Counted from the first letter of the stretch, positions 47,797 to 57,043 are shown. The stretch is DNA of 64,000 nucleotides from Candidatus Aenigmatarchaeota archaeon (GCA_023137195.1 JAGLPV010000001.1:42242-106241); one strand, 5' to 3'. The notes: generated by a model not told the origin, from the letters alone. Numbers and translations: made by a program.

Positions 47797-50385
47797 TTAA
47801 AGAATATTTTTCAGCCAACCGACAAGACTATCGATTAACCCTTTCTTTTTTACGTGAATTGTTCTTCCGGTTATTGTGTTTTCGTTTTGCTTTGTAGATA
47901 GATTGTTTGTAAAAGAGTTTTCATCTGCGTTAAAAATACTTGTTTCAATTGTTTTATTGGTCAGAACAGAACATGCAGTGTACTTTTTTACATTGTCAAA
48001 GTTATATTCTGCAATAAAAAACACTTCCGAATCTGAATTTATAGAGTTAAAATAAAGTGTTTTCTGTCTTTTAATAGAATATGTTTTTTCTTTTTCTGTT
48101 AAGCCAAAACTATGCAATGTGAAATTGATTTCTTCTTTGTGTTTGTTTTTTATCACTACTTTTATTTTTTCATCTGCATTTGAGCAGGATAATTCTGCTC
48201 CTGTATTGGAGCTTTTTTGCTCTTTTGCGTTGTCGCTAGAGGTTCCATTCCATTCTAAGATTCCTTTGATTTCAATACCAGAAGTACTATCTGTTTTTTT
48301 GCCGGTTGTCCAATCAGTAACCCTTATCCTGTAATTGTAAAACCCTTCTTCAATATCTTCCTTTATTGTATTTTCCAGAATGATTTTTTTGGACCCGTAT
48401 GCGCCAAGATGGATTTCTTTTTCATTTGGGATCCATCCACCTGTGTTTGCAATTTTTTGTGACGAATAAATATATGATTTTACCTTGCAGATTTTTGTTT
48501 TGGATTCGGTGTTTTTTAGGGTAAATGATATATTGATTTTTTCATTGCGTTTTGCGATTTTTTGGAGATTAACATTTTCAATGTCATAGGAGCCATATGT
48601 TGGAGTGGCTGAATTGCCTGTGCCGTATGTTTTGGTAATCGTTTTGATAGGGCATTCATTTTGCCCGCTTATTTCTATCTGGGTTTCTTCCCTGAAATCA
48701 GAATAATCCTCCCATTTACATTCTGCCTTATTGTATCTGCATATGCGGCAGGACAGGGCGTATTCGCCGGTATCATAGTACTGGTCGCAGTTAGGATACG
48801 CAAATATAGGAATAAAGACATCGTAATTTTCCCCTCTTTCTGTACTTATCTGGATTGCTGTATTTTGTGAGCAGTAGTTGCTGGTTATTTTGCTGCCAAC
48901 AAAATCAGCCAAAATGCCTTTCCTGTTGTAGCCGTTGCAGACAAATTTCAGGTCCTGACCGCAATTGCCTGAAAAATATTCTGTATGCACAACTGCAAAA
49001 GAGTTGAACAGAAGTGACAGTTGTGTTGTTTTTATAGCAAAGGTCGGCTCTCCTAAATCTTCCAGACCGGAGATGTTTATCTTTTCTTCTTCTCCTGATT
49101 TTTCAATGAGTTCTTCTCCGATGCTGAAAATTATTTTCGGATATATTTTTGAGGTTTGGGTTATTGAATCATGTGGGACTGTCCAGTTGCAGTTTATAAT
49201 ATTGCTTGAGTTGTTTAGTATTTCTGCCATATTGCAATATAGTATTTCATCAGAGTCTCCACCGGTTGCTGTTTTTAATTTTTCAATGATTAAATATGCG
49301 CTTACATTGTATTGTTTTGATTCATTGTTTGTTATACTCATACTTATATTTAATGTATCATTTATCTTCAGATTTAATCCAGAACTATTCCACGAATCTA
49401 TAAAGATATTTCCTATGCCGGCATAATTAAAAAAAGCAGTAGATGTAATGTATGATTTGCCTGTCTTGTTTTTAGAAGACTTGTCGAGGTTAAATCTTGC
49501 ATAGCATTTGTATTCTCCCGCAAGAGCATTTTCCGGGATGTTCCATGTTAAGTTGTTGGTAAGGTTGCTTAGGTTTGTTACATCAATAGGGATATTAATA
49601 TTTTGTTCGATGATAATCCAGTCTTGTGGGTATTCTTCCATGTCAATGCGTTTGAATTTTATGGATAAAGTTCCGTTTATGGTTGAATTGAATGAGTTGG
49701 TTATGTTTCCTGTGAGAATTACTTCTTCCCCGATATCAAAATTATTTTTATTTATTCCTATATTTAGGTTCAATTCATTATTTGTTTTTGGTTCATTTTC
49801 ATCGGGAGAGGAGCAATTGTTTTTCGTTCCCGGCGTTGGGATTGCAGAGCACCAGTTGTTCATGTCTGAAGAATTTCCTGTTGAATTGATTTTTTGCAGT
49901 GAATTTCCGTTTTTTGCTTCCGGCCATCCTGTAGATTTGTTATAATTAACAAAATCTGCACAAGTGCTTTTATTGTTTAAGATAATTATCTCTCCTGAAT
50001 CAGACAGTCCTCCACATAAGCTGCTTACATCAACATGCAGTGCCAAAGAAGTATCAGAAATATTAAAATAGCTGTAAACTAATGTTCCACTTCCTCCGTC
50101 AGTGATAATTGCATATTGTTTTGGCAGAAGGACCATTGTATTGTTGGCATAAATGTTTTTGTCTGTCTCGTTTACATATCCTGCCAGCAAATTCTTTTGG
50201 CAAAGTTGCCATTGAGTTAAATCAACAGATTCGTTTGAAGGATTATGGAGTTCTATCCATTCACAATGAGATGCCGAACATTGATCTGGACTATACATCA
50301 CTTCATTAATCACAACCTGCCCAAAACACGGAAGAGCTAAGAATAGAACAAAAAACAAAAACATGTATTTTGTTGAATTATACAT
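47797..50385 (-). CDS. Large secreted surface protein with an N-terminal lamin-tail domain (LTD) and Asn-rich beta repeats
   Basis: Signal peptide, then VINEVMYSPDQCSASHCEWIELHNPSNESVDLTQWQL (LTD signature). It has many NxS/T sequons and Cys pairs. 862 aa. Confidence 0.8.
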   Translation of the reverse strand: MYNSTKYMFLFFVLFLALPCFGQVVINEVMYSPDQCSASHCEWIELHNPSNESVDLTQWQLCQKNLLAGYVNETDKNIYANNTMVLLPKQYAIITDGGSGTLVYSYFNISDTSLALHVDVSSLCGGLSDSGEIIILNNKSTCADFVNYNKSTGWPEAKNGNSLQKINSTGNSSDMNNWCSAIPTPGTKNNCSSPDENEPKTNNELNLNIGINKNNFDIGEEVILTGNITNSFNSTINGTLSIKFKRIDMEEYPQDWIIIEQNINIPIDVTNLSNLTNNLTWNIPENALAGEYKCYARFNLDKSSKNKTGKSYITSTAFFNYAGIGNIFIDSWNSSGLNLKINDTLNISMSITNNESKQYNVSAYLIIEKLKTATGGDSDEILYCNMAEILNNSSNIINCNWTVPHDSITQTSKIYPKIIFSIGEELIEKSGEEEKINISGLEDLGEPTFAIKTTQLSLLFNSFAVVHTEYFSGNCGQDLKFVCNGYNRKGILADFVGSKITSNYCSQNTAIQISTERGENYDVFIPIFAYPNCDQYYDTGEYALSCRICRYNKAECKWEDYSDFREETQIEISGQNECPIKTITKTYGTGNSATPTYGSYDIENVNLQKIAKRNEKINISFTLKNTESKTKICKVKSYIYSSQKIANTGGWIPNEKEIHLGAYGSKKIILENTIKEDIEEGFYNYRIRVTDWTTGKKTDSTSGIEIKGILEWNGTSSDNAKEQKSSNTGAELSCSNADEKIKVVIKNKHKEEINFTLHSFGLTEKEKTYSIKRQKTLYFNSINSDSEVFFIAEYNFDNVKKYTACSVLTNKTIETSIFNADENSFTNNLSTKQNENTITGRTIHVKKKGLIDSLVGWLKNIL

Positions 50386-51065: not shown

Positions 51066-52073
51066 TTATCCAAACAAAGCACCTAAACCCGCAGCAGCTT
51101 CTTCATCTTTCTTTTCAGCTTCTTCTGCAGATGGTTTTTCTTCCTTTTTTGCTTCTTCTGCTGGTTTTGCATCTTCTTTTTTCTCTTCTATTTTTATATC
51201 TCCTGTTGCTTCTTTTGGAAGAGCGGAACATAAACCGAGTGCTTTTGAATTCAAATTGGACATTATGGCTCCAACGGTATCTTTAGTTACGATATTTGCT
51301 TCTATTGCAATATTTTTTGCCTGCTGTGTTGCTTCGCCTATCTTGAATTCAACAACTTCTGAAGTTGGATAATCTATATTGTATGCTAAATTAAATGCAT
51401 TATTGTGAACATTGCATATATTGTTTTTATATTCGTCTAAATCTATTGTGAGTATTGATTTATCATAAATAATGCCGTTCTCGTAGCATTTTTTTAACTC
51501 AAGAGTTATTTTCATTGGTTTTACTTCCAGCTTCATCAACATTTCTGCTGTTTTACTGTCAATTTCTTTTCCTGCATCTACAAGGGTTTTATCTTCCATT
51601 ATTACAATTTTTGGTCCCTGTATAGATGCTTTTATTTTCAGGTTTTTCAAATCAGATATTGCCGGTCCCGGTGGAAGTTTTGTATCTCCTTTTGGAACTA
51701 CAATGTCGTCTGTTGCAATATCTCCTGATTTTGCAAAAATGCTTGATTTTTCGTTGTTTATCTTTTTCTGGAGTTCAAAAGGGTCTATATCAGAATAAAT
51801 AAGAGCAGGGATTTTAGCGTCTTTTGCTTTATCCTCTTCGCTTTGAAGCAATAGTTTCTCTATTCCTTTTTTTTCATTCTTTACCTTTTCCAGTGATTTA
51901 ATTATGATTTTCTTGCCGTACATCTTTATTTTTGCGATATTCCTTAATCCTTGTCTGATTGACTGGGTCTGCGCTCCCGGCAATTTGTAAAAGTCAACTA
52001 TGCCGACTAATTTTGCATCTCTTATTTCCTGGCACAATTGCTCCTGTTTTTTTATCTTTAGTTCTGAAACCAT
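51066..52073 (-). CDS. rplP0: Ribosomal stalk protein P0 (uL10)
   Basis: The track ORF is trimmed to the ATG at 52073 (MVSELKIKKQEQL...). Beyond the uL10 core it has the archaeal P0 extension and the stalk tail [12 protein letters not shown]. Confidence 0.9.
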   Translation of the reverse strand: MVSELKIKKQEQLCQEIRDAKLVGIVDFYKLPGAQTQSIRQGLRNIAKIKMYGKKIIIKSLEKVKNEKKGIEKLLLQSEEDKAKDAKIPALIYSDIDPFELQKKINNEKSSIFAKSGDIATDDIVVPKGDTKLPPGPAISDLKNLKIKASIQGPKIVIMEDKTLVDAGKEIDSKTAEMLMKLEVKPMKITLELKKCYENGIIYDKSILTIDLDEYKNNICNVHNNAFNLAYNIDYPTSEVVEFKIGEATQQAKNIAIEANIVTKDTVGAIMSNLNSKALGLCSALPKEATGDIKIEEKKEDAKPAEEAKKEEKPSAEEAEKKDEEAAAGLGALFG

Positions 52074-52126
52074 ACTTACGACTTTTATTAAAATAAGCAA
52101 AAAGTTTTTAAGGGTATTGCCAAAAT

Positions 52127-54499
52127 TCAATCTTTTTCTTCTAAATACAAGTCCAGAATTGAAATTGCTGCCATTGCTTCTGCTATTGGTGGAACTCTTA
52201 TTGCAATGCATGGGTCGTGCCTTCCACCCACAGTGATTTTTGTATTTTGGTAGGTCGATAGATTTACTGTTCGCTGTTCTTTAGAAATAGATGCTGTGGG
52301 CTTTATTGCGACTCTGAACACTACAGGCATTGAATTTGTGATTCCACCCAGTATGCCTCCTGCGTTGTTTGTGTATGTATGTATCGTGTTGTCCTTGTCA
52401 AAATAAAATTCATCGTTGTGTTTGCTACCCTGCAGGGTTGCTGCATTGAAGCCGGAGCCGAATTCTATTGCCTTTACTGCGGGAATAGAGAATATTGCAT
52501 GAGATATTATGCTTTCAACGGAGTCAAATAATGGTTCGCCCAAGCCAACGGGCAGTCCTGATATTATGCACTCTACTATGCCGCCTACAGAGTCGTTGTT
52601 GTTTTTGGTTTCCTCTATTTTTTCAGTCATTTTTTTTGCAATGGTCTGGTCCGGGCATCTTACGAGATTAGAATAGGTGTTTTTTTGAATTTCCTCAAAG
52701 TTAGGTTGTTCGTCTAGTATTACGTCTCCAATCTGCTTGGTATAGGCGCATATTTGGATTCCTTTGTTGTTTAGAATCTTTTTTGCAACTGCGCCTGCCG
52801 CAACCAGGCATGCTGTTAGTCTTCCGGATGCAAAACCTCCGCCATTGTAGTCAAATATGCTTGCGTATTTTTCCCTTGCAGTAAAATCTGCGTGTCCCGG
52901 GCGAGGAGTGTGTTTTATGCTTTCGTATGAGCCGGAATGAACATTCTTGTTGAAAATCTCTATTTTTATTGCATCACCGGTTGTGGATTCATCTTTAATT
53001 CCTGAAATTACGTGGATTTTGTCTTCTTCTGTCCTTGCAGTAGAGAGGTGGCTTATGCTTCTGCGTTTGTCCACTTCTTTTTGTATGTCTTCATCTGCGA
53101 TTTTGATGTTTTTTGGTATGCCCTCGAGCAGGAATCCTATTTTTCTGCCGTGGGAGTCACCGTAAATTGAAAGCTTTATTTTTTTGCCAAGTGGAGCGCA
53201 AAGAGGCATTATGTTTGCGCCCAGCTTTCTCATGTCGTCGTAAAATACAGGATATGATTTTTTTATGCAGATGGGGTTCTGGATGATTGTATCTCCTTCT
53301 GCAATAAATCCTGCGATACTGCATGCCATGGCAATCCTGTGGTCGTTATGCGAGTCTATTTCTGCTCCCCTGAGTGTGGTTGGTCCGGTTATTTCAAGAC
53401 TGTTTTTATTTTCAACAATGTCTGCGCCCATTTTTTTTAACTGGGATGTTATTGCTGCTGCGCGGTCGGATTCCTTTATCCTGAGCCGCTCTATGTTTTC
53501 TATTATTGTCTTTCCATGTGCCTGTGATGCTATGACAGCAAGAGTCGGTACCATGTCGGGAATATCTTTTGCATCTATTTTTATTGCTTTTAGCTTGCTT
53601 TTTTTTACACTGAATTCATTTTGAGAAAAAGAGAGGTCTGCGCCCATTTGCTTTAGGATATCTGTGATTCTTCCATCTCCCTGGAGGGATGGGTAGTTGA
53701 TTCCTTTTATGGTCAGTCCTTTTGGGCTTGCAAGGACTCCTGAGGCAAATAAAAATGCGCTTGAAGAGCAATCTCCCTCGACGATATACTTGTCTGTTGG
53801 TGTGTATTTTTGATTACCTTCTATAATATATTCTCTTAAATCTTCAGATGCCTTTATTTTGATTCCGAATTTCCTTAAAATATCGAGGGTTATCAATATG
53901 TAATTTTTTGACTCCATTTCTGTTGTAATGATAATTTTGCTTTGTTTTTCCAGGAGAGGCAGAATGAATAATAATCCTGTTATGTACTGGGAACTTACAT
54001 TGCCTGCAATTTCTATGACTGATGGTTTTAGTGTGCTTTTTTTAATTTCGACAGGTGGTAGTTTGCCATTAGAGGTGATATTGGCATTCATTTGCTTCAA
54101 TACATCGACCACATGGAAGACCGGGCGCTTTAGGAGTCCTTCGTCGCCGGTAATTTTGGCAGAGTCGCATAAAAGAGAGGCTATTGGAATTATGAATCGC
54201 ATTGTGGAGCCGGACTGCCTGCAATTTAGTGTGCATGAGGATGGTTTTTTTGTGTTTATGTTGTTGCCAACGCCTTTGACTTCAATAAATCCATCCCTGA
54301 ATTCTATTTTCGCGCCTAAGATTTTAAATGCTTCGATGGTGGCTATTGTGTCTTCGCATATTAATGGGTTGTATATCTTTGATGTTCCCTGGGCAAGAGC
54401 AGCGCAGATTATTGCCCTGTGGGTGAAACTCTTCGAGGGAGGGACTTCTACTGTACCTTCAATATCGCTTTTGTTTAGTATTAAGTTAATTTGTGACAT
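52127..54499 (-). CDS. Bifunctional EPSP synthase (AroA) - chorismate synthase (AroC) fusion
   Basis: aa 1-~430 are AroA (PPSKSFTHRAI, LNCRQSGSTMRF, IKESDRAAA, DHRIAMA). aa ~440-790 are AroC (YGDSHG, RPGHADF, GRHDPC). The junction is near 53190-53210. Confidence 0.88.
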   Translation of the reverse strand: MSQINLILNKSDIEGTVEVPPSKSFTHRAIICAALAQGTSKIYNPLICEDTIATIEAFKILGAKIEFRDGFIEVKGVGNNINTKKPSSCTLNCRQSGSTMRFIIPIASLLCDSAKITGDEGLLKRPVFHVVDVLKQMNANITSNGKLPPVEIKKSTLKPSVIEIAGNVSSQYITGLLFILPLLEKQSKIIITTEMESKNYILITLDILRKFGIKIKASEDLREYIIEGNQKYTPTDKYIVEGDCSSSAFLFASGVLASPKGLTIKGINYPSLQGDGRITDILKQMGADLSFSQNEFSVKKSKLKAIKIDAKDIPDMVPTLAVIASQAHGKTIIENIERLRIKESDRAAAITSQLKKMGADIVENKNSLEITGPTTLRGAEIDSHNDHRIAMACSIAGFIAEGDTIIQNPICIKKSYPVFYDDMRKLGANIMPLCAPLGKKIKLSIYGDSHGRKIGFLLEGIPKNIKIADEDIQKEVDKRRSISHLSTARTEEDKIHVISGIKDESTTGDAIKIEIFNKNVHSGSYESIKHTPRPGHADFTAREKYASIFDYNGGGFASGRLTACLVAAGAVAKKILNNKGIQICAYTKQIGDVILDEQPNFEEIQKNTYSNLVRCPDQTIAKKMTEKIEETKNNNDSVGGIVECIISGLPVGLGEPLFDSVESIISHAIFSIPAVKAIEFGSGFNAATLQGSKHNDEFYFDKDNTIHTYTNNAGGILGGITNSMPVVFRVAIKPTASISKEQRTVNLSTYQNTKITVGGRHDPCIAIRVPPIAEAMAAISILDLYLEEKD

Positions 54500-56393
54500 A
54501 ATCGTTATTTATTGATTCAATTATTTTTCTAGCTATTTCTTTCGGAATACAATTATCTGTATTAATTGAATAATCAGCAACATCATTATAAAAATATTGC
54601 CTTTCATCCAAAATCTGTTTTATTTTGTTAATTTTTTCTTCATTATTCAGTTTCAACAGCGGTCGGTCATTATCTTCTTTCAATCTCTCTGCAATTGTTT
54701 CCGGCTTTGCCTTCAGCAAGACAACGAGGTAGGATTTTAATAAATTCCTGTTTTTTTCGTCCAAAACAATACCGCCACCACAGGAGATAACCTGCCTGTT
54801 TTTACTCAATGTTTTTTTAAGCATGTTCTTTTCCAGTTTCCTGAAATGTGCTTCTCCATATTTTTCGAAAATTTCAGTTATGGATAATTTAGCTTCTCTT
54901 TCAATCTCTTTGTCCAGATCAATGAAAGTCCTGTTCATATTTTCCGCCAGTCTCTTTCCAACGCTTGTTTTTCCGGTTCCCATGAATCCCACTAAGGCGA
55001 TGTTGGGTAGAATCTTAGCCAGCACGGCATCCGTCATTGTCGGAATATTTGCATCCAGTCCAGTCCATATCTTAAATGACTGTGCTCCCTGGTATGCAAG
55101 CATTTTGTATCCCAAAATAACAGGACATCCTATAGATTCGGCATCTTTTGCCAGCCTGGTCTTAATTGGAGTGTAGACGATATCAAAAACAACCATTTCT
55201 TTTTTTAGGTATTCTTTCGGGACAATGGATTCGTTTGAATTCATTCCCACCGGAGTGCAGTTAATTAAGACATCTGCATTTTCCAGTTGAGTTTTTAAAT
55301 TCCTGTCATCGAGTTTAATGCATTTTCCTATTTTGCTTCCCTTTTCTTCGTTTCGTGCAAGAATAAGGACATCTGCCTTGTGTTTTTTGAGCGTAAAATA
55401 TATGCCTCTTGCCGCTCCGCCCGAGCCGAGAATAATGATTTTTTTTCCTTCTGTGTTTTTCATTTTTTCTTTTATTGCCAGCATGGCTCCGTAGCCGTCC
55501 GTATTGTATCCGATAAGTTTTCCGTCTTTGTTTAGAATGGTATTTACTGCGCCAATCTCTTCTGCCAAAGGGTCTATTTCATCCAGATATTTCATCACTT
55601 CTACTTTGTGAGGGATTGTGACATTGATGCCGGAAAGTCCTCTTGAAATAACTGTATTCATGTATCTTTCCAGATTAGTTACCTGAACGCCAACATATCC
55701 TGCGTTAATATTTAACGATTTAAAATTTGCATTATGCATAACAGGGCTTAAAGAATGCGCAATTGGGTTTCCGATTACGCAATATAATTTTTTCTTTTTT
55801 GCCTGCTCTAAACTGATTTGCCCGGGAGCAGTCTTGTTTTTGTCCACGCTGCAATAAGTCCATAATGCACCGTGAGCAAGACAGTCTAGTCTTGTTTGCA
55901 TTCCTGTTTTTCCCATGCCGAATGCGATTAAAGGAAAATCTGTTTTGCTGTAAAGAGATAAAAGGACTGTATTGTCGTATTGTGATTGTGGGGTTGCGAT
56001 TATTTTTGCGATGTCTGCTCCTTTTTGCTGAATGGTTTTTGAAATGTTTAATAATTCTTTTTCCGGAGGAGTATCTTCATAATTATGGTAAGATAATATG
56101 ACTTTAATTTCTTTTTTTTTGGCGAAAGCCAGCACTTGTGTGTTGATTTCGTTAATATCCATGTCTATATACTTCACACCGTGGTTTATCGCATCAATTA
56201 GAATTTTTTGGTCTCCTTTCCTGTTCGTTGCAATGATGGGCAAAGGACATGAAGAAATTATTTTCTTCAATCCCTCTTTTTTGATAAGATAATCAATTCT
56301 TAATTCGATTAGATTAGCACCGTCTGCTTGTGCTTTTTTTATTGTGCTTATGCACTTTTGAATAGTCTTTCCTGCAATACATCCACAAAACAT
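54486..56393 (-). CDS. Trifunctional type I 3-dehydroquinate dehydratase (AroD) - shikimate dehydrogenase (AroE) - P-loop shikimate kinase (AroK) fusion
   Basis: aa 1-~200 are AroD-like (IELRIDYL, SYHNYEDTP, AKIIATP). aa ~203-460 are AroE (GNPIAHSLSPVMHN, NVTIPHK, GYNTDG, GSGGAARG). aa ~465-635 are AroK (Walker A GFMGTGKT, with GTGKT at 54966-54980, then DLD). It overlaps the AroA-AroC gene by 14 nt. Confidence 0.88.
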   Translation of the reverse strand: MFCGCIAGKTIQKCISTIKKAQADGANLIELRIDYLIKKEGLKKIISSCPLPIIATNRKGDQKILIDAINHGVKYIDMDINEINTQVLAFAKKKEIKVILSYHNYEDTPPEKELLNISKTIQQKGADIAKIIATPQSQYDNTVLLSLYSKTDFPLIAFGMGKTGMQTRLDCLAHGALWTYCSVDKNKTAPGQISLEQAKKKKLYCVIGNPIAHSLSPVMHNANFKSLNINAGYVGVQVTNLERYMNTVISRGLSGINVTIPHKVEVMKYLDEIDPLAEEIGAVNTILNKDGKLIGYNTDGYGAMLAIKEKMKNTEGKKIIILGSGGAARGIYFTLKKHKADVLILARNEEKGSKIGKCIKLDDRNLKTQLENADVLINCTPVGMNSNESIVPKEYLKKEMVVFDIVYTPIKTRLAKDAESIGCPVILGYKMLAYQGAQSFKIWTGLDANIPTMTDAVLAKILPNIALVGFMGTGKTSVGKRLAENMNRTFIDLDKEIEREAKLSITEIFEKYGEAHFRKLEKNMLKKTLSKNRQVISCGGGIVLDEKNRNLLKSYLVVLLKAKPETIAERLKEDNDRPLLKLNNEEKINKIKQILDERQYFYNDVADYSINTDNCIPKEIARKIIESINNDYVTN

Positions 56394-56404
56394 ATTTGAT
56401 TATT

Positions 56405-56965
56405 TTATTTGATGTTAATAGAGCCAATAATATTATTTAAATCCTGGGTAAAATTCGCATTAGGAGTATTGATGTAATAATATAGAAGAATTAATATAAG
56501 GATTATAATGAAAAACGAAATTCCTCCTCTATTATTCTTGTTTTTTGGTTCTTGTTTAGGAATATTGTTATTTATCGAAGAATCATTACTTTCTGTTTTT
56601 GGATTGATGGATTCTGTGTTTTTTAATAAAACCGTTTCGTTGGATGAAATAGGGTTGGAGTTTAATTGGACTAGGATTTCATCAATTGTTGTTCCCGGAG
56701 AGAAAGTGATATTTTTCCCGTATGTCAAATTATCGGCAAAACGCAAAGCAATTCCAGTCACCAAATAGTTTAAATCAGGCAGGTTTTTATTTATGTATCT
56801 TACTAGTCCTACTCCTGGATTGGATTGTACGGGAGAATAAGGGATTTTTGTTATTTTACCTCCTTTTTCTACTTTTATTAAAAACTGCACATCTGCTATG
56901 TGCTCGGGCAATATGTCTTTTTCATTTCCTTTTTTTGCTACAATAATAGTATATTTTTCTGTCAT
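56405..56965 (-). CDS. Hypothetical protein with a C-terminal TM anchor
   Basis: 186 aa with a soluble N-terminal domain, an Asn/Ser-rich linker and a TM segment (ISFFIIILILILLYYYI). No motif recognised. Confidence 0.5.
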   Translation of the reverse strand: MTEKYTIIVAKKGNEKDILPEHIADVQFLIKVEKGGKITKIPYSPVQSNPGVGLVRYINKNLPDLNYLVTGIALRFADNLTYGKNITFSPGTTIDEILVQLNSNPISSNETVLLKNTESINPKTESNDSSINNNIPKQEPKNKNNRGGISFFIIILILILLYYYINTPNANFTQDLNNIIGSINIK

Positions 56966-57043
56966 AATTATCTCTATCTGAAAACTATTTATACATTCCT
57001 TTTAATCAATAAGTATAAATAATTATTTCGCTCTTTTTATACT

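Follow-up and report, generated by a model that had tools for sequence, protein, structure and literature searches.

The locus described here raises the question of whether steps 3 to 7 of the shikimate pathway can reside on two polypeptides in an archaeon, and how such an arrangement would have arisen. It lies in a 64,000-nt stretch from Candidatus Aenigmatarchaeota archaeon (GCA_023137195.1, JAGLPV010000001.1:42242-106241), called the window below, which is part of a 172-kb contig in a 1.42-Mb genome (G000, 85% complete). A first-pass annotation of the window had reported two overlapping fusion genes; their coordinates, their lengths of 635 and 790 aa and their 14-nt overlap were all reproduced by the listing of open reading frames (ORFs). 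We consider it quite likely that these two coupled genes, aroDEK and aroAC, lead from dehydroquinate to chorismate and form a foreign cassette that displaced the native set. The features of the cassette, in window positions, are:

54486..56393, minus strand: aroDEK, a single 635-aa ORF for type I 3-dehydroquinate dehydratase, shikimate dehydrogenase and P-loop shikimate kinase (steps 3, 4 and 5)
55794..56393, minus strand: AroD domain, aa 1-200, a shortened type I dehydroquinase (PF01487)
55011..55793, minus strand: AroE domain, aa 201-461 (TIGR00507)
54489..55010, minus strand: AroK domain, aa 462-635, P-loop shikimate kinase (PF01202)
54486..54499, minus strand: 14-nt overlap of the aroDEK stop with the aroAC start, read from the sequence
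52127..54499, minus strand: aroAC, a single 790-aa ORF for 5-enolpyruvylshikimate-3-phosphate (EPSP) synthase and chorismate synthase (steps 6 and 7)
53204..54499, minus strand: AroA domain, aa 1-432 (TIGR01356)
52130..53191, minus strand: AroC domain, aa 437-790 (TIGR00033)

The ATG of aroAC sits within the final aroDEK codons, ...GAT TAT GTC ACA AAT TAA, and the overlap of the two genes suggests translational coupling. The domain junctions were at about 55.79 kb (D-E), 55.01 kb (E-K) and 53.2 kb (A-C), in agreement with the positions named earlier.

The domain-wise annotation with hidden Markov models (HMMs) that the first-pass annotation had proposed placed all five domains far above the Pfam gathering scores. 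In the 635-aa protein, DHquinase_I (residues 3-200), Shikimate_dh_N (206-286), Shikimate_DH (308-405), SDH_C (428-458) and SKI (471-628) were matched with 143.6, 99.3, 29.0, 39.7 and 169 bits, respectively; the cut-offs of the AroD (PF01487) and AroK (PF01202) models are 22.2 and 22.1 bits. The 790-aa protein was covered by EPSP_synthase (10-423, 363 bits) and Chorismate_synt (442-786, 416 bits). The E-values of 1e-42 to 1e-125 rule out chance matches. The stricter models of AroE (TIGR00507, 270 bits vs 200.2, residues 202-461; NF001319, 287 vs 252), AroA (TIGR01356, 416 bits vs 287.25, residues 15-428) and AroC (TIGR00033, 405 bits vs 212.2, residues 442-789; NF003793, 409.8 vs 321) were passed as well. 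The best single-domain PDB match of AroE was the shikimate dehydrogenase 1nvt, with 222 bits.

The catalytic positions were conserved in all five domains. Among 15 DEK proteins, E30, R32, R58, H103, K130, M160, R168 and Q192 of AroD were invariant; K130 and H103 presumably correspond to Lys170 and His143 of the Salmonella enzyme, the Schiff-base lysine and the general-base histidine. S216, K263, N284, D299, G323/G325/G326 and Q435 of AroE were invariant in the same proteins, including the catalytic Lys/Asp pair (K263, D299) and the glycine-rich NADP loop (G323/G325/G326). The same holds for the Walker A motif GFMGTGKTS (G472/G474/K475), D494, R518, G539-G541, R577 and R598 of AroK. In the 32 fused homologues of aroAC, K23, S24, R28, D315, K342, E343, R346 and R388 of AroA were invariant or at least 90% conserved. 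The signature motifs of AroC, G-x-S-H-G, R-P-G-H-A-D and R-H-D-P-C, were kept: G447-S449-H450 and R760-H761-D762-P763 were conserved in these homologues, and within R533-P534-G535-H536 the residues P534 and H536 were invariant, with R533 and G535 at least 90% conserved. The Pfam and NCBIfam domains and the catalytic positions bear out the earlier claim that the two fusions cover steps 3 to 7, and the two-gene cassette is real and probably active.

The first-pass annotation had correctly seen no enzyme of step 1 or 2 in the window, and had recommended a search of the remaining genome. The only matches of the genome to dehydroquinate synthase II (DHQS-II, 437 bits) and to 2-amino-3,7-dideoxy-D-threo-hept-6-ulosonate (ADH) synthase (351 bits), the archaeal form of these steps, were found on contig C55. 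In the genome, no AroB was detected with PF01761 or by tblastn with AroB queries, and no 3-deoxy-D-arabino-heptulosonate 7-phosphate (DAHP) synthase was detected by tblastn. The gene order on C55 was determined to be a 563-aa fusion of prephenate dehydrogenase (PDH), prephenate dehydratase (PDT) and ACT, a 516-aa fusion of an AA_kinase-like domain and ADH synthase (ADHS), DHQS-II and chorismate mutase (CM). Contig C7 carries trpE-G-D-C. As read from these genes, Phe, Tyr and Trp synthesis from aspartate semialdehyde looks complete, and four proteins of this pathway are fusions in the genome.

Two of the proteins on C55 deserve a separate description. The ADH synthase (C55:20480-22036) has an N-terminal aspartate-kinase-like domain without ACT (PF00696, 73.9 bits, residues 13-226; DeoC, 208.9 bits). 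ADH synthase uses aspartate semialdehyde, and a full aspartate kinase (AK) and Asd precede it as separate genes in locus L122. In the congener G021, the ADH synthase ORF is only 277 aa long and has no amino-acid-kinase domain. The second protein, a single 563-aa ORF (C55:18519-20210), comprises prephenate dehydrogenase (PDH_N, PDH_C), prephenate dehydratase and ACT and contains no chorismate mutase.

In the proposed explanation, AroD-E-K and AroA-C, with their domains in pathway order, would together convert 3-dehydroquinate to chorismate. Dehydroquinate would be supplied by the DAHP-independent archaeal route on C55, i.e. the aspartate-kinase-like-ADH synthase fusion and DHQS-II, and chorismate would be consumed by chorismate mutase, the PDH-PDT-ACT fusion and the trp operon. 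The benefit would be a fixed 1:1 stoichiometry, co-expression, fewer genes and possibly some proximity effect. The ancestor of the cassette may have been the conserved archaeal operon aroD-aroE-(shikimate kinase)-aroA-aroC, in which a P-loop AroK would have taken the slot of the GHMP kinase. The stops between the coupled genes would then have been lost, between E and K and then at D, and between A and C. The cassette would be foreign to the lineage and would have replaced the separate aroA-D-E-K-C genes downstream of DHQS-II, which are kept by a congener and the sister family.

The gene order of the canonical archaeal operon is identical to the domain order of the cassette. In TACK archaea, the operon aroD-aroE-[GHMP shikimate kinase]-aroA-aroC was detected with TIGR01920 at 225-266 bits, which also provided the positive control for this model; the GHMP-kinase operon was confirmed at these scores in Thermoprotei, Bathyarchaeia, Nitrosotalea and archaeon RBG_16_50_20. 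Nitrososphaeraceae L056 and Methanosuratincola L086 have a D-E-gap-A-C layout in which the kinase was not scanned. The cassette differs from the canonical operon in that a non-homologous P-loop AroK occupies the kinase slot and two fused genes take the place of five. In L045, an uncultured archaeon, D-E-AroK-A-C are five separate overlapping genes, the kinase again being of the P-loop type; AroC and AroA of L045 branch beside the fused clade. At several loci, aroC follows in frame directly after the aroA stop, so that the loss of one stop codon would create an A-C fusion.

The P-loop type of the kinase, which the first-pass annotation had recognized by its Walker A motif, was confirmed by PF01202 and GFMGTGKTS. 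That annotation had also treated it as the unusual part of the locus, which did not hold. In the genome, the best match to the GHMP-type model TIGR01920 reached 36.5 bits (contig C57) with a cut-off of 126.85, and none of the 42 genomes of the phylum contained a GHMP-type shikimate kinase over the cut-off. All relatives with AroA/AroC and a detectable shikimate kinase use a stand-alone P-loop AroK, which adjoins aroC wherever the contigs show it; G018 and G019 (78% and 71% complete, respectively) gave AroA/AroC matches and no SKI match. The archaeal GHMP shikimate kinase is attributed to Daugherty et al. 2001 in PMC3018139. A 2024 survey (PMC11237513) reported aroE-aroK fusions for 42 of 55 Methanomicrobiales, along with aroD-aroE fusions elsewhere among the archaea. 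With aroE-aroK fusions already on record for archaea, the presence of a P-loop kinase in such an organism is no novelty in itself. The finding counters the notion that the GHMP type is the sole shikimate kinase of archaea.

The distribution of the fused form bears on its source. The main fused-AC clade (30 rows) also contains Micrarchaeota, Thermoplasmata and many unlabelled metagenomic proteins. The fused form was found in 4 of 151 sampled Micrarchaeota genomes. Among 80 named species representatives, the sole true fusion was that of the Micrarchaeota locus L033, which carries the same pair, DEK of 649 aa and AC of 791 aa. AC fusions had appeared to be common in Clostridia, Collinsella and thaumarchaea; this was rejected by an ORF check, in which 79 of the 80 loci were not fused AC (mostly adjacent separate aroA and aroC, the rest an AroC match alone). 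The operon of L122 was read as AK-Asd-ADHS-DHQSII-[DEK]-[AC]-CM-PDT-AT-PDH, and that of L119 as DAHPS-AroB-D-[EK]-[AC]-PheA-PDH. L119 and L121 (K-CM-[AC]) represent intermediate states of fusion. A single clade for all fused AC rows was rejected by the approximately unbiased (AU) test with p = 2e-59, which implies an independent origin for at least two further small AC fusions.

Recent and direct acquisition of the whole cassette from bacteria was judged unlikely. It would agree with the nearest stand-alone AroKs, which are bacterial (Omnitrophota, Endomicrobiales, Clostridia) with 45-50% identity vs 36-39% for same-phylum AroK, with a clostridial AroA nested in the starred clade (41 rows) of the fused AroA, and with a few homologues labelled Deltaproteobacteria, Patescibacteria and Pirellula. 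However, AroC of the fused clade branches beside the archaeal L045 and Methanosuratincola, and almost every labelled member of the main fused clade is an archaeon. Of the loci read here, only archaeal ones showed the D-E-kinase-A-C order, bacterial loci being ordered otherwise, and in L122 the cassette adjoins the archaeal ADHS/DHQS-II route. The AroK domain alone is a different case: the cassette AroK forms a clade (support 95, starred) among mainly bacterial AroKs of Omnitrophota and others, the grouping with which has a weak support of 83, and an old bacterial origin of this domain would be plausible.

A few bacterial NCBI labels (Deltaproteobacteria, Patescibacteria, Parcubacteria) occur within otherwise archaeal fused clades, at P0166/P0167, P0004 and P0013; either mis-binning of DPANN contigs or genuine transfer between domains could account for them. 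The genome has a second SKI-family gene, divergent and stand-alone (C45:30526-30987, 113 bits), which forms a long branch in the AroK tree. The congeners G021 (contig C7 of that genome) and G020 (C10) have this gene too, and it may not encode a shikimate kinase.

The origin of the fusions in place, from vertically inherited genes of the lineage and with no foreign cassette, was likewise judged unlikely. Within the phylum, fused AC was found only in G000 and the congener G019. Separate AroA and AroC genes were present in seven sister-family genomes and in the congener G021, and G018 had AroC only. The order aroA-aroD-aroE-aroK-aroC was shared by the four native clusters read (G021, G002, G004, G006), which, on contigs long enough to show it, come immediately after ADH synthase and DHQS-II. 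The adjacency of D, E and K in this native cluster would suit an origin in place, as would the 64% AC identity to G019, which is within the 43-72% range of other shared genes, and the AroE tree, the backbone of which has no resolution and does not clearly separate the two gene sets. In contrast, the native genes directly follow DHQS-II, whereas G000 has CM at this place and [DEK][AC] on another contig. The identity of the G021 aroA-D-E-K-C genes to the fused genes of G000 was only 31-45%, in comparison with 78% for the neighbouring ADHS and DHQS-II and 48-72% between G021 and the sister family (AroA and AroC 70-72%). The fused AroD shared 24-36% identity with the sampled unfused AroDs.

The AroA, AroC and AroK trees placed the fused cassette and the native genes of the phylum in different starred clades, and a single Aenigmarchaeota AroC clade was rejected by the AU test (p = 1.3e-5). 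Mis-binning of the G021 contig was rejected on the strength of its flanking genes, which show synteny with G000 and 57-83% identity. From the trees and synteny, a foreign fused cassette appears to have displaced the five separate native genes of the lineage. The hint of horizontal origin in the first-pass annotation is supported by the AroA, AroC and AroK trees and the identities, for the whole cassette and not for the kinase alone. The fused AC of P0124, labelled Aenigmarchaeota archaeon ex4484_52 at NCBI, was identical to that of G019 over the AroA and AroC domains, and the label of this congener's protein places G000 in the DPANN Aenigmarchaeota.

Assembly or sequencing artefacts, i.e. a frameshift or lost stop that merged separate genes, are a highly improbable source of the fusions. 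A single error could mimic a fusion, as aroA and aroC are adjacent, overlapping or one in-frame stop apart in many relatives. Nevertheless, the exact 635-aa and 790-aa proteins recur in NCBI, Logan and ENA records, and two further ENA assemblies contain full-length 635-aa and 790-aa variants with 1-4 and 8 substitutions (8 in the aroAC variant) and zero indels. Shorter contigs yielded fragments across the E-K join, the A-C join and the gene boundary. The D-E-K architecture is common to about a dozen cluster representatives, which are colinear with 43-64% identity, and the A-C architecture to about 60; these come from unrelated samples. In the alignments of homologues, the conserved joins were short and colinear (...GQISLEQAK-KKKLYCVIGNP...; ...LAKILPNIALVGFMGTGKTS...). 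The AlphaFold2 models of aroDEK and aroAC resulted in a mean predicted local distance difference test (pLDDT) score of 91.5 and 91.3 and a predicted template modelling (pTM) score of 0.84 and 0.89, respectively. The junction segments had pLDDT values of about 89-93, which predicts ordered joins and not floppy linkers.

A role in another pathway, such as quinate/shikimate catabolism or a secondary metabolite, would be compatible with the AroD/AroE-like enzymes of quinate catabolism and the secondary matches to YdiB-type models, and is extremely doubtful because the top matches are biosynthetic aroE, aroA and aroC equivalogs, the genome holds a fitting entry route, CM, PDH-PDT and trp genes, and relatives embed the cassette in complete aromatic amino-acid operons.

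Several observations weigh against a foreign cassette of coupled fusions as the full explanation. The AroD domain scored 122 bits with the stricter equivalog TIGR01093, just below the cut-off of 139.3, owing to a truncation of about 30 residues, and AroK reached 178.5 bits with the equivalog NF010553, below the cut-off of 204. The trees were obtained by "quick" IQ-TREE searches; the main fused-AC clade, with a support of 92, is not starred, and the AroA and AroC trees give the fused clade different sisters. The fused AC of G019 is in a non-syntenic place relative to the window and is accompanied by no detectable DEK in this 71% complete genome. The AroK of L045 groups weakly with clostridial AroKs and not with the cassette AroK, which leaves room for repeated entry of the kinase into the operon. 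The close relative L121 has the order K-CM-[AC]; its stand-alone kinase indicates that both fusion and fission occur. Substrate channelling in the fused proteins is speculation, and we know of no channelling found for AROM.

In eukaryotes, AROM (Aro1) is one chain ordered AroB-AroA-AroK-AroD-AroE, which includes dehydroquinate (DHQ) synthase and has no chorismate synthase. The first-pass annotation had drawn a parallel to AROM with a different order and split. The difference stands, and the likeness is conceptual only: several consecutive shikimate steps share a chain, and the AroD, AroE, AroK and AroA regions match AROM/Aro1 (PDB 6hqv, 7u5s) at 128-146 bits. Unlike AROM, the cassette has two chains, D-E-K and A-C, in strict pathway order, includes AroC, excludes AroB and belongs to a DHQS-II archaeon. 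Judged by this domain content and order, it is an independent prokaryotic fusion that falls outside the AROM family.

The same D-E order and join are found in the bifunctional DHQ dehydratase-shikimate dehydrogenases (DHQ-SDH) of plants (2gpt/6bmb), of the Chlamydia type (PRK09310) and of archaea (aroD-aroE, PMC11237513), and the best PDB match of aroDEK was 2gpt (residues 2-448, 245 bits). These enzymes have no kinase domain, and aroDEK is not the PRK09310-type equivalog (NF006802, 194 bits vs 598). The AroE-AroK fusions of Methanomicrobiales (PMC11237513) and those found here in Clostridia, Collinsella, Thermoplasmata and Woesearchaeota also carry a P-loop AroK directly behind AroE, whereas the cassette has AroD in front too. 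The EK proteins that adjoin fused AC belong to the AroK clade of the cassette, and the clostridial EK proteins form a separate clade (support 99, starred); no Methanomicrobiales sequences were among those sampled. Other prokaryotic fusions, namely K-D-E proteins, AroK-AroC and AroA-AroK, draw on the same domain pool in other orders, and by this comparison [DEK][AC] is a particular combination that recurs.

The K-D-E proteins (P0023, P0025, P0028, P0059) form a separate family of about 660-720 aa with the permuted order AroK-AroD-AroE. P0186 (1047 aa) combines AroC, D, E and K, and P0176 (907 aa) AroA, AroC and CM. As read from these architectures, shikimate domains have been shuffled repeatedly in uncultured prokaryotes.

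No solved structure joining E-K or A-C was found in the PDB search, and no description of DEK or AC fusions was found in the literature, including DPANN papers and the supplements of PMC11237513, an absence that is not proof. As far as these searches reached, an EPSP synthase-chorismate synthase enzyme was not previously described or characterised. Shikimate multi-enzyme fusions such as AROM and the plant DHQ-SDH are textbook cases in the debate of channelling vs co-regulation. The cassette would add a prokaryotic solution with steps 3-7 on two polypeptides in strict pathway order, the junctions of which are confidently modelled as ordered. The locus would also be a clean within-genus example of five native genes replaced by a foreign compact two-gene cassette in a genome under reduction. 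Together with the AK-like-ADH synthase and PDH-PDT fusions, it indicates that compaction, and not loss, is how some DPANN archaea maintain their full autonomy in aromatic amino acids.

A more far-reaching reading is offered tentatively, as we find it rather doubtful. The [DEK][AC] pair may be a self-contained module that moves horizontally among small-genome archaea (Aenigmarchaeota, Micrarchaeota) and Thermoplasmata, works with either entry route (ADHS/DHQS-II or DAHPS/AroB) and replaces native sets of five genes, its rigid joins forming a split-AROM-like new architecture. If this were true, it would be a genuinely new enzyme architecture, particularly in the case of EPSP synthase-chorismate synthase.

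The genes and signals next to the cassette are:

56405..56965, minus strand: ORF186, 186 aa with a hydrophobic C-terminal stretch, co-directional and upstream, with 11 nt between its end and the aroDEK ATG
56986..56993, minus strand: TATA-like box TATAAATA, about 25 nt upstream of the ORF186 ATG, read from the sequence
51066..52076, minus strand: archaeal ribosomal protein L10/P0 gene, on the same strand directly downstream of aroAC

ORF186 gave no NCBIfam match. Its spacing and direction suggest that it is probably co-transcribed with aroDEK and apparently heads the transcription unit, for which the TATA-like box would be a candidate archaeal promoter (ORF186-aroDEK-aroAC). The L10/P0 protein matched NF003098 with 270.7 bits from residue 46 (MVSELKIKK), just below the 331-bit cut-off, and the acidic tail is present. 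Translation probably starts at Met46 of the listed 381-aa ORF (51066-52211), which begins about 45 codons too early; its overlap with aroAC is then only apparent and the real gap is about 50 nt. By its sequence match, this gene marks the contig as archaeal. Further downstream, an 862-aa secreted protein (47797-50385, minus strand) with many Asn-x-Ser/Thr sites and a lamin-tail-like N-terminal segment is probably a surface or adhesion protein.

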